Shown here in pieces: positions 2,470 to 4,076 of a DNA stretch of 4,508 bases (its first letter is position 1; every line of letters starts with the position of its first letter). Location of the stretch: the IMG/VR virus record IMGVR_UViG_2706794663_000007; one strand, written 5' to 3'. Position numbers and translations under genes: made by a program. The notes under the pieces were generated by a model. The model was not told the origin of the DNA. It ran no database searches and saw only the letters and a list, made by a program, of their open reading frames with translations. This DNA comes from a virus (lineage: Duplodnaviria; Heunggongvirae; Uroviricota; Caudoviricetes).

Positions 2470-3156
2470 ATGACCCCAATAAACATATTTATGACAGTTG
2501 CTGATTTCAAACGGCCCAAATTGGAGCTCCCAAACGGGGCAAACAAACTACTACTGCACTCTTGCTGTGCTCCATGTTCCGGTGAGGTGATGGAGGCGCT
2601 TCAGGCCTCGGGAATCGACTACACCATCTTTTTCTACAACCCGAACATTCATCCTCAGAAAGAGTATTTAATTCGTAAGGATGAGAATATTCGCTTTGCT
2701 GAACAACACGGCGTGCCGTTTATTGATGCTGATTACGACACAGACAACTGGTTTGAACGAGCCAAAGGAATGGAATGGGAGCCCGAACGAGGGATCCGTT
2801 GCACCATGTGTTTTGACATGCGTTTTGAGCGGACAGCGCTGTACGCCGCTGAAAATGGTTTCAGTGTGATCAGCAGTTCACTGGGCATTTCACGCTGGAA
2901 AAATATGCAGCAGGTTAACGACTGTGGGCGGCGAGCCGTCGCGCATTATCCGGGCATGGTGTACTGGGATTATAACTGGCGCAAGCAGGGCGGCTCGTCC
3001 CGTATGATTGAAATCAGCAAGCGCGAAAAATTCTATCAGCAGGAATATTGTGGCTGTGTGTATTCTCTGCGCGATACCAATCTACACCGCAAATCTCAGG
3101 GACGCCCTCTTATCAAAATTGGTCAACTCCACTACGGTAAAGAAGAGAAGGAGTGA
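2470..3156 (+). CDS. queH: QueH-type epoxyqueuosine reductase homologue (DUF208 family)
   Basis: 228-aa ORF (ATG 2470; alternative ATG 2491; no clear Shine-Dalgarno for either). N-terminal motif [11 protein letters not shown] (2548-2580) and C-terminal [11 protein letters not shown] match the conserved cysteine motifs I associate with the QueH/DUF208 family; size is also consistent. Stop TGA 3154-3156. Family assignment is by recalled motifs, not by search. Confidence 0.7.
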
Positions 3157-3177
3157 TTTTATGGGGCACCTTTCTGA

Positions 3178-3207
3178 TTGATTTCATATTGGCGAGGTAA
3201 GTAGAAT
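3178..3207 (+). promoter_or_regulatory. Putative sigma70 promoter of the hok/mok mRNA
   Basis: -35 TTGATT (3178-3183), 18-bp spacer, -10 TAGAAT (3202-3207). The predicted start near G3214-3216 gives a 5' end GGGUGCUUGAGGCUAUCUGCUUCAGG, which resembles the conserved 5' end of hok-family mRNAs (recalled). Confidence 0.4.
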
Positions 3208-3264
3208 GACTGCGGGTGCTTGAGGCTATCTGCTTCAGGCATGAACACCAAAAGGCAGATAGAG

Positions 3265-3335
3265 AAAAGCCCCAGTTAACATTACGCGTCCGGCAAGACG
3301 CTTAACATTAATCTGAGGCCAATTTCATGCTTTGC
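3265..3335 (-). ncRNA. sok: Putative sok-like antisense RNA (approximate boundaries)
   Basis: Expected by analogy with hok/sok loci, where the antitoxin RNA is antisense to the mok translation-initiation region. On the minus strand there is a candidate promoter: -35 TTGCCT (complement of 3365-3370), 17-bp spacer, -10 TAACCT (complement of 3342-3347). This predicts a start near 3335 reading toward lower coordinates across the mok start region. No clean terminator was identified, so the 3' end is a guess. Confidence 0.3.
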
Positions 3336-3539
3336 ACATGTAGGTTAGCCTCTTACATGCCGAAAGGCAAGGAGAAGCAGGCTATGAAGCAGCAAAAGGC
3401 GATGTTAATCGCCCTGATCGTCATCTGTTTAACCGTCATAGTGACGGCACTGGTAACGAGGAAAGACCTCTGTGAGGTACGAATCCGAACCGGCCAGACG
3501 GAGGTCGCTGTCTTCGTAGACTACGAATCCAGGAAGTAA
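3327..3539 (+). CDS. mok: mok-like (modulator of killing) reading frame, an in-frame N-terminal extension of hok
   Basis: ATG 3327 with GAGG at 3315-3318; 70 codons ending at the hok stop. This in-frame extension arrangement matches my recollection of chromosomal mok/hok pairs in E. coli K-12. Confidence 0.5.
   Translation: MLCTCRLASYMPKGKEKQAMKQQKAMLIALIVICLTVIVTALVTRKDLCEVRIRTGQTEVAVFVDYESRK
3384..3539 (+). CDS. hok: Hok/Gef-family type I toxin (small membrane-damaging peptide)
   Basis: 51-aa product MKQQKAMLIALIVICLTVIVTALVTRKDLCEVRIRTGQTEVAVFVDYESRK is near-identical over about 45 residues to E. coli HokD/RelF and Gef/HokC as I recall them. AAGGAG at 3369-3374, 9 nt before ATG 3384. Hydrophobic transmembrane segment followed by the conserved RKDLCE..R..G..EVA.F..YE tail. 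Confidence 0.9.
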   Translation: MKQQKAMLIALIVICLTVIVTALVTRKDLCEVRIRTGQTEVAVFVDYESRK

Positions 3540-3547
3540 GAGTGACC

Positions 3548-3608
3548 GGGCGGGGAGCTGATCCCATCCCCGCCCACCTCTGATGTGTCAGGCATCCTCA
3601 ACGCACCC
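3548..3608 (+). promoter_or_regulatory. hok mRNA 3' structured region: perfect GC hairpin plus fbi-like element complementary to the mRNA 5' end
   Basis: 9-bp perfect stem GGGCGGGGA (3548-3556) / TCCCCGCCC (3567-3575) with a 10-nt loop, starting 9 nt after the hok stop. CCTCAACGCACCC (3596-3608) is complementary, with a 1-nt bulge, to the predicted 5' end GGGTGCTTGAGG (3214-3225). Confidence 0.45.
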
Positions 3609-3616
3609 GCACTTAA

Positions 3617-3659
3617 CCCGCCCATCGCTGTGATCTCTCAGCGTTTCGGCGGGTTTTTT
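3617..3659 (+). terminator. Rho-independent terminator of the hok transcript
   Basis: Stem CCCGCC (3617-3622) / GGCGGG (3648-3653) enclosing an inner stem CGCTG (3626-3630) / CAGCG (3639-3643), followed by T6 (3654-3659). Confidence 0.7.
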
Positions 3660-3679
3660 GTTGTTTATTTCCGGTGAAT

Positions 3680-3707
3680 TTGATTCGCGCACCTTCGCAG
3701 ATAGAAT
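3680..3707 (+). promoter_or_regulatory. Putative sigma70 promoter for the downstream two-ORF unit
   Basis: -35 TTGATT (3680-3685), 16-bp spacer, -10 TAGAAT (3702-3707), immediately after the hok terminator. The hexamers and the flanking TAGAAT-N-GACT are the same as in the hok promoter (3178-3207). Confidence 0.35.
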
Positions 3708-3788
3708 CGACTCACTTAAGTAGCGCGCAGGGAGAAGAGGGATGGACCCCGAACAGGGGAGAGCTATTTATCTGGAAGGATTCTGAAG

Positions 3789-4076
3789 ATGAAAATCGAA
3801 GAATTGCGTGAAATTTTTAGTGAAAATGGCCTCTATGCTGTGCGCGTTGAGAATGGAGCGATTGTCAGCCATTGCCGCATTAGATGTTTGCAATCTCAAC
3901 AAAGGAAGAGCGGTGCTGTGTTATTTTATTTTTGTAATGGACTTCTGACGGACGGTTTTATTTTGCGTGAGGACGAATTTGTCACATCATTACGGGTTTT
4001 GAAAGAGATTGGTTTTAAGGCTGGTTTTCTGCTTTTGCTGAAGAATAAACTCATCTACAATCTTGAGCAGGATTGA
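3789..4076 (+). CDS. Hypothetical small protein (95 aa), phage-associated
   Basis: ATG 3789 with GGAAGGA (3774-3780) 8 nt upstream; stop TGA 4074-4076. AT-richer than the replication genes by eye. No family recognised. Confidence 0.55.
   Translation: MKIEELREIFSENGLYAVRVENGAIVSHCRIRCLQSQQRKSGAVLFYFCNGLLTDGFILREDEFVTSLRVLKEIGFKAGFLLLLKNKLIYNLEQD

Follow-up and report, generated by a model that had tools for sequence, protein, structure and literature searches.

A complete, apparently intact hok/mok/sok-type locus of the hokW/hokD subgroup predicted in a lambdoid prophage

The window analyzed here, the whole stretch of 4,508 nt, carries replication, DnaC-like, DUF977, QueH, Rem-like and DUF1367 genes. 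Its sequence indicates that the segment 3178-3660, with queH upstream and the rem-like gene downstream, very probably holds a hok/mok/sok locus with all the parts of a type I toxin-antitoxin module, one of the hokW/hokD subgroup that a lambdoid prophage carries in its early/nin region in a Shigella/E. coli chromosome. An earlier note on this DNA had proposed a complete locus of this type within the prophage, and every part that it listed is present, either where it had been placed or within a few bases. This kind of locus is already known and very common, and the present one is an ordinary, apparently intact copy. Its features are the following.

3178-3207, plus strand: promoter-like site for the hok/mok mRNA (-35 TTGATT at 3178-3183, 18-nt spacer, -10 TAGAAT at 3202-3207), from a consensus scan
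3214-3659, plus strand: predicted full-length hok mRNA of ~446 nt, with the +1 taken from Rfam and conservation and the 3' end from the hairpin and T-run
3214-3225, plus strand: tac, the 5' end GGGUGCUUGAGG, paired with fbi in the MFE structure and alternatively with ucb in the Rfam consensus structure
3263-3335, minus strand: predicted Sok antisense RNA of ~71-73 nt, with a 5' tail, a long hairpin and a GGGGCUUUUCUCU tail; maps onto the annotated sokW of 933W
3267-3273, plus strand: ucb, the anti-Shine-Dalgarno (anti-SD) sequence of mok, AAGCCCC, paired with the mok SD in the full-length MFE structure and with tac in the Rfam structure; invariant in 46 relatives
3315-3318, plus strand: mok SD GAGG, 8 nt upstream of the ATG at 3327; invariant in relatives
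3319-3341, plus strand: hypervariable patch by column entropy, which forms the hairpin loop with the mok AUG and is complementary to the 5' tail of Sok
3327-3539, plus strand: mok frame, 70 codons, in frame with hok; from the ORF list
3342-3370, minus strand: Sok promoter-like site (-35 TTGCCT at 3370-3365, 17-nt spacer, -10 TAACCT at 3347-3342), read from the sequence
3348-3352, plus strand: dcb, GCCUC, paired with GAGGC at 3315-3319 in the Rfam structure; 5/5 pairs intact, invariant in 46 relatives
3384-3539, plus strand: hok toxin gene, 51 aa, with SD AAGGAG at 3369-3374; from Pfam, PHROG and RefSeq
3548-3575, plus strand: 3'-UTR hairpin, GGGCGGGGA / UCCCCGCCC, from the MFE structure; 5-7 nt longer than in relatives
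3596-3608, plus strand: fbi, CCUCAAcGCACCC, forming 12 pairs with tac with one bulged C (MFE); conserved
3615-3659, plus strand: terminal hairpin and T-run, intrinsic-terminator-like (stem 3615-3622/3648-3655, six T at 3654-3659), from folding

The assignment of 3384-3539 to the Hok/Gef toxin family, made in the earlier note, held up well. The 51-codon product covers the full 42-position profile of Pfam HOK_GEF (PF01848) with 79.9 bits against a cut-off of 22, matches PHROG 251 'MokW-like host killing' (E=1e-32) and is exactly the RefSeq peptide WP_014532198.1 'HokD', which is encoded in an identical genome stretch. The NCBIfam models of the Hok family gave matches below their cut-offs only (55 vs 73 bits). 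The near-identity to HokD/Gef that had been suggested stands for K-12 HokD, with 46/51 residues identical, but the closest relative is HokW of the Stx2 phages 933W and Sp5 (VT2-Sakai), at 50/51, and not Gef. Likewise, the C-terminal tail VFVDYESRK does differ from that of HokD (VDYESRK in the window, TAYEPEE in K-12) but is not unusual: it is the HokW-type tail VFVDYES-K with one E-to-R change, the 933W peptide ending VFVDYESEK (E50, where the window has R50). In an alignment of 46 distinct hokD/W-type mRNAs from IMG/VR, E. coli, a phage and a plasmid, referred to here as the 46 relatives, the column entropy over hok codons 1-44 is 0.063 bits; in this comparison the Hok sequence is evidently constrained.

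The mok frame, which had been read from 3327 as an in-frame extension of hok, is present in the ORF list at 3327-3539 with its 70 codons. Its ATG is conserved in 45/46 relatives, and both its SD and its start codon lie inside the predicted Sok RNA (3263-3335). The framing varies among the 46 relatives, with mok in frame with hok in 36, in the +1 frame in 6 and short in 3. Such variation fits the published view that it is the translation of mok, and not its product, that matters (PMC9841398).

A promoter had been proposed at 3178-3207, and the same segment was recovered as a sigma-70-like site, TTGATT-18-TAGAAT, with 9/12 consensus matches; the consensus scan gave 2 such sites in 700 nt vs 0.5 expected, and the site is promoter-like by sequence. 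The -10 hexamer TAGAAT is conserved in the aligned relatives. Compared with queH-linked relatives, the window is without 10 nt that these carry after 3198; they read TTGGCG-17-TAGAAT, whereas the window has TTGATT at 18 nt instead. The 10 nt missing from the hok promoter region have therefore put a different -35 hexamer in register. The -35 hexamers of both the hok and the Sok promoter-like sites, as well as the Sok -10, are weak matches to consensus. The predicted +1, G3214, lies 6 nt past the promoter-like site and coincides with position 1 of the Rfam model and with the start of the conserved block. From G3214 it is 170 nt to the hok ATG and 113 nt to the mok ATG, in agreement with the long leader of about 110 nt described earlier. 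The covariance-model search that the earlier note had proposed as a check, run with Rfam over the whole window, returned a single match, RF01794 'sok', at 3214-3389 (117 bits against a gathering score of 59, E=4e-27), which covers model positions 1-157 of 157. This match, which is on the plus (hok-sense) strand, runs up to the hok AUG; what the model describes is therefore the hok leader, to which Sok is antisense.

Sok is predicted to start near 3335 and to cover the mok SD and AUG. An antisense RNA had been placed at 3265-3335 on the minus strand, which is exactly where the 71-nt antisense sokW of 933W maps (GenBank AF125520, in which mokW and hokW are annotated as well). The Sok hairpin has a predicted fold of -31.7 kcal/mol (z = -5.3) and is followed by the GGGGCUUUUCUCU U-run. 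The Sok promoter was not called by the consensus scanner, for which it falls below threshold with a -10 that matches only 3/6 positions. Both of its hexamers are conserved in 37-46 of the 46 relatives, and the promoter-like stretch is that of 933W but for one spacer base.

The most variable part of the locus is the 23 nt around the mok AUG, where the mean entropy is 0.757 bits vs 0.203 for the whole mRNA. At least 8 variants of this patch occur among otherwise near-identical loci, and 7 of the first 16 Sok nucleotides differ between the window (3320-3334) and sokW. S. flexneri SFBU1023 has three hok copies with three different patch variants, the Sok variants of co-resident copies being of the CTCAATCC... 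and CCCAATCT... types.

The predicted full-length mRNA (3214-3659) has an MFE of -189.6 kcal/mol (z = -8.4 vs shuffles). This closed fold sequesters the start sites of both frames: ucb binds the mok SD, 3583-3595 is base-paired with the region of the mok AUG, and the SD and AUG of hok are buried as well. Across the 46 relatives, tac/fbi is paired in 99.8% of cells and the closed structure of the window in 93.5%, a figure that falls to 33-40% once the 3' partners are shifted by 1-3 columns. The 5' hairpin carries compensatory changes (AU-to-GC in 16 sequences, CG-to-UA in 5). The tac/fbi, tac/ucb and SD/dcb helices are intact and almost invariant in the hokD/W subgroup and so find no covariation support there; covariation within the subgroup is weak because its sequences are 93% alike. 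Across genera, tac and fbi do covary: GGGUGCUUGAGG / CCUCAAcGCACCC in Escherichia vs GGGCGCUUGAGA / UCUCAAGCGCCC in Photorhabdus differ by two compensatory changes, U:A to C:G and G:C to A:U. The second conformation described in the literature, in which tac is paired to ucb and the mok SD to dcb, is the one seen in the Rfam consensus structure, and its open-form helices can be formed in the window (tac/ucb 7 pairs, SD/dcb 5 pairs). For the 5' 176 nt, the Rfam open structure comes to -30.2 vs -58.2 kcal/mol for the MFE structure. Since the MFE folds of 3'-truncated RNAs had no textbook tac/ucb stem and a different local 5' hairpin instead, we do not claim the refolding pathway as shown.

The MFE fold has a hairpin at 3548-3575 in the 3' region, which the earlier note had called structured. 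The final hairpin of truncated R1 mRNA guards it against 3' exonucleases (PMC9841398), and the hairpin at 3548-3575 may be its equivalent. The intrinsic terminator claimed at 3617-3659 agrees with the stem at 3615-3622/3648-3655 and the T-run at 3654-3659. These were obtained by folding because the long hairpin loop is outside the limits of the terminator scanner, which found nothing in a consensus scan of 3100-3800. The stem AACCCGC/GCGGGTT is kept, and 23 nt (3622-3644) are inserted before the TTCG loop, making an inner 5-bp stem; the predicted fold of the terminal hairpin is -24.2 kcal/mol vs -12.3 kcal/mol for the common AACCCGC-TTCG-GCGGGTT form. The insertion is visible in the alignment with K-12 and O18. 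That alignment also led us to reject a different 3' end as the cause of the loss of megablast homology at ~3621, as the terminator stem is the same and carries a 23-nt loop insertion. The exact 23-mer occurs in 27 IMG/VR contigs, always at the same place, with an intact leader in 24/27; a mobile or repeated element was rejected, all 27 exact matches being in one context. The reinforced terminal hairpin could, from the predicted folds, delay or prevent the trimming of the 3' end on which activation depends.

The locus might thus be a structurally complete but silent relic, like the K-12 chromosomal hok loci, with the re-spaced promoter inactive or the terminal hairpin locking the mRNA in its closed form. 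The 10-nt deletion relative to queH-linked relatives and the 23-nt insertion, with its deepening of the predicted hairpin, are what such a reading would build on, along with the IS-ridden state of the host prophage in the identical genome, the loss of the leader in some contigs of the same lineage, and the earlier tests of chromosomal hokA, hokB and hokC, in which no post-segregational killing was seen (bioRxiv 10.1101/2025.08.07.668861). However, the reading frames are open, none of the pairings of tac, ucb, SD, dcb and fbi is broken, a 9/12 promoter match remains after the deletion, Hok is constrained over codons 1-44, and the insertion allele is found with the same flanks in all 27 contigs, 24 of which keep the leader. 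We consider a silent relic distinctly unlikely, and prefer to view the locus as an intact module whose lineage-specific features appear minor, of modest interest, and disruptive of no known element. Conversely, the hypervariable patch and the 23-nt terminator insertion could, taken jointly, represent functional tuning and not drift, a proposal that we regard as possible but doubtful. If it were true, the 17-nt Sok 5' tail and the mok-AUG loop would form an orthogonality code, at least three near-identical prophage hok/sok modules would coexist per Shigella/E. coli chromosome without cross-neutralization, and the insertion would slow 3' exonucleolytic maturation, lengthening the delay before Hok is made.

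Among known systems, the hokW/mokW/sokW locus of 933W and Sp5 is 92% identical in nucleotide sequence over window ~3194-3618; other Stx phages also match along with 933W and VT2-Sakai at 92%. The 933W locus resembles that of the window in its in-frame mok of 70 codons, in its tac, ucb, dcb and fbi, which are the same, and in its location in a lambdoid phage. The two differ in their neighbors (L0139/L0136 in 933W, queH and the rem-like gene in the window) and at the 3' end, where the window has its reinforced hairpin and 933W-type loci have neither hairpin nor T-run past fbi. The hokD (relF) locus of the cryptic prophage Qin of K-12 has the same 3' UTR, fbi and terminator stem, although its terminator has a plain TTCG loop where the window has the 23-nt insertion, and its downstream neighbor Rem is also found in the window (68% identical). 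Its homology to the window runs from the hok SD onward only, the promoter, tac, ucb, sok and mok being replaced by relBE. The window locus, in which the full leader, mok and sok are present, is not a K-12-type hokD.

More distant systems share the general plan. The R1 plasmid hok/sok (parB) locus is like the window in its tac/fbi closed form, its ucb and dcb, its coupling of hok to mok and a Sok antisense to the mok start (PMC9841398). It resides on a plasmid and not in a prophage, and R1-type plasmid loci have mok (DUF5431) out of frame with hok, whereas it is in frame in the window. Only a 47-nt core around the Sok promoter and the hok SD (~3342-3388) is recognizable in plasmid hok loci, at ~89% DNA identity, and HokW-type peptides are ~44% identical to R1 Hok (PMC8621323). 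Loci of the hokD type on P1-like phage-plasmids of E. coli/E. fergusonii (~97 kb) are closer, with 85-86% nucleotide identity over ~80% of the locus and the same leader and fbi, but have mok in the +1 frame (68 codons), a stronger Sok promoter (TTGACC/TAATCT) and a different terminator.

Experiments published in 2021 established hokW-sokW as a functional type I toxin-antitoxin system: Hok is toxic and is neutralized by sokW RNA, which was detected and is expressed from its own promoter, with partial dependence on RNase III and Hfq, and HokW is found in the inner membrane (PMC8621323). During RecA-dependent induction sokW is lost and HokW is produced, and the locus brought faster lysis and two-fold more release of Sp5 (PMC8621323). 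In the R1 scheme, the full-length mRNA is closed and is trimmed slowly at its 3' end to an open form, which is translatable and binds Sok, and the duplex decays through RNase III (PMC9841398). We infer by analogy that the window copy shares the mechanism of hokW-sokW. The constitutive-type promoter-like site would give rise to a closed mRNA of ~446 nt, in which tac and fbi are predicted to be paired and the mok SD to be held by ucb. Slow 3' trimming would then remove the terminal hairpin and fbi, allowing tac to pair with ucb and the mok SD with dcb, and so render the mRNA translatable and able to bind Sok. As long as the unstable Sok is made, the duplex would be destroyed, partly via RNase III. 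Once Sok is no longer made, because the prophage is induced, transcription is shut off or the element is lost, translation of mok would drive that of hok, and the 51-aa Hok would insert in the inner membrane and collapse it.

The most likely role of the module, by analogy with what has been measured for hokW-sokW, would be to hasten lysis on induction. In a decayed prophage, the locus would persist as a selfish addiction module. In E. coli FDAARGOS_943, where the stretch is identical, the surrounding lambdoid prophage is broken by IS600, IS1 and IS2 and is defective, so that help with lysis may no longer matter there. The module could also stabilize the prophage, killing post-segregationally any cell from which the prophage has been excised or lost. 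Plasmid hok/sok classically acts in this way, GenBank's 933W record has the note 'prophage maintenance', and the combination of a stable mRNA and an unstable antisense RNA also fits the architecture. Against this, deletion of hokW-sokW had no effect on lysogen growth and no curing phenotype was reported (PMC8621323), tests of chromosomal loci for post-segregational killing failed (bioRxiv 10.1101/2025.08.07.668861), and a defective prophage cannot excise. We hold stabilization to be rather unlikely as the main role, and the hastening of lysis remains our preferred one.

Alternatively, shut-off of host transcription by a lytic phage such as T4 could deplete Sok and free Hok, excluding the phage by a form of abortive infection. 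On a high-copy plasmid, R1 hok/sok reduced the plating efficiency of T4 by 42% and its plaque size by ~85% (quoted in PMC8621323), and hok is enriched in prophages, which are frequent carriers of defence cargo (bioRxiv 10.1101/2025.08.07.668861). The R1 effect, however, is modest and needs high copy number, and hokW-sokW benefited its own phage, with no defence phenotype reported (PMC8621323). PADLOC models gave no match for Hok or Mok at E<=0.01, a result with which an exclusion phenotype would still be compatible, and no enrichment of hok around defence systems is seen (bioRxiv 10.1101/2025.08.07.668861). The abortive-infection reading remains speculative because there is no PADLOC model for Hok and no such enrichment, and we judge it quite improbable next to the lysis role measured for hokW-sokW.

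The earlier note had regarded an intact copy as notable, a view that the distribution of the locus does not bear out. DNA like 3150-3700 is present in 4713 of 5426 complete E. coli genomes, where the gene is annotated hokD and lies downstream of queH as in the window. An intact copy is not notable because at least 2130 of the 5426 genomes match at least 80% of the query, leader included. The stretch is 100% identical in FDAARGOS_943 and FDAARGOS_944, IMG/VR holds more than 575 relatives, and the 5' leader is missing from some contigs of this lineage. In one scan of species-representative genomes, the identical peptide was found in Shigella flexneri SFBU1023 and E. coli ECMA0423, and more distant loci in E. 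albertii, Kluyvera, Citrobacter, Pantoea, Erwinia and Photorhabdus. A hokW/hokD-type locus is carried very commonly by the lambda-like prophages of E. coli and Shigella.

Beyond correct annotation, the locus matters little, and nothing in it will surprise a specialist. RefSeq labels only the 51-aa ORF ('HokD') and leaves the mok frame, the Sok RNA and the mRNA elements unannotated. The name reflects peptide similarity only, and it is misleading because the K-12 hokD is truncated and because mok, Sok and the mRNA elements go unannotated. The window shows cleanly what the Qin hokD locus looks like in its complete, ancestral form. Variation in the family is concentrated in the Sok recognition patch, the Hok C-terminal tail and the 3' terminal hairpin, and could be put to use in the design of experiments on cross-talk and timing.

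The terminator hairpin of hok is standard except for its loop, which carries a 23-nt insertion, CCATCGCTGTGATCTCTCAGCGT (window 3622-3644), that folds into an inner stem of 5 bp and makes the hairpin, by prediction, twice as stable. The insertion is present in 27 IMG/VR contigs, each time at this place, and a one-base variant of it (CGCCG) occurs in Shigella flexneri SFBU1023 and E. coli ECMA0423. A few IMG/VR contigs (L011, L137) share both this hok gene and the terminator with the insertion but have unrelated sequence where tac (the 5' end of the mRNA) and the leader would lie, and thus decayed or recombined derivatives of the hok allele of the window exist. The hokW locus of 933W/Sp5, which has been studied by experiment, differs in that neither a hairpin nor a T-run is found 3' of fbi, the pairing partner of tac, and its similarity to other hok loci stops after this element (L001, the phage 933W locus, 1907-1965). 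Additional hokW RNA bands have been described (PMC8621323), and the hairpin-less 3' end may be linked to them.

The promoter-like site of hok is also altered. Relative to queH-linked relatives (e.g. L003, 2520-2560), 10 nt between GGCGAGGT and TAAGTAGAAT are missing in the window (3191-3207); the usual -35 hexamer, TTGGCG (17 nt), is gone, and TTGATT lies in register at 18 nt. The features surrounding the locus are as follows.

755-943: 189 N (masked), inside the region of a replication-protein/DnaC-like (ydaV-type) gene
2470-3156: queH, epoxyqueuosine reductase (Pfam PF02677, 220 bits), prophage cargo
3680-3707: second promoter-like site, TTGATT-16-TAGAAT, its two hexamers identical to those of the hok promoter
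3789-4076: 95-aa ORF, 68% identity to K-12 Rem of the Qin prophage; PHROG 340 (function unknown)

Directly upstream of hok lies queH, and this linkage is also seen in the top-ranked of 2130 E. coli genomes (match covering at least 80% of the query). The second promoter-like site is located upstream of the 95-aa ORF. Because the masked run falls within it, the long ORF at 497-1471 is unreliable.

Within hok, the Tyr47 codon UAC and the G that follows it (UACG, inside CUACGAA) are invariant among the 46 relatives, while the adjacent codons vary; the motif is retained in the window at 3522-3525. According to a 2026 preprint, A-to-I editing by TadA recodes this C-terminal position to Cys in the hokC, hokD and hokE mRNAs.

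The Rfam RF01794 "sok" match (window 3214-3389) lies on the hok-sense strand, reaching to the hok AUG, and its strand is therefore opposite to that of the Sok gene. This reversal is a pitfall for automatic annotation. The frame of mok relative to hok is not conserved in the alignment of 46 distinct hokD/W-type mRNAs: mok is in frame in 36 and in the +1 frame, with 68 codons, in 6, stops after 19 codons in 3 others, and has ACG instead of its ATG in one. The patch comprising the mok AUG and the Sok 5' tail (window 3319-3341) is hypervariable, with at least eight variants across near-identical loci, and three hokD/W-type copies on one Shigella flexneri chromosome carry three different variants. 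Such differences among co-resident hokD/W copies suggest selection against cross-talk.
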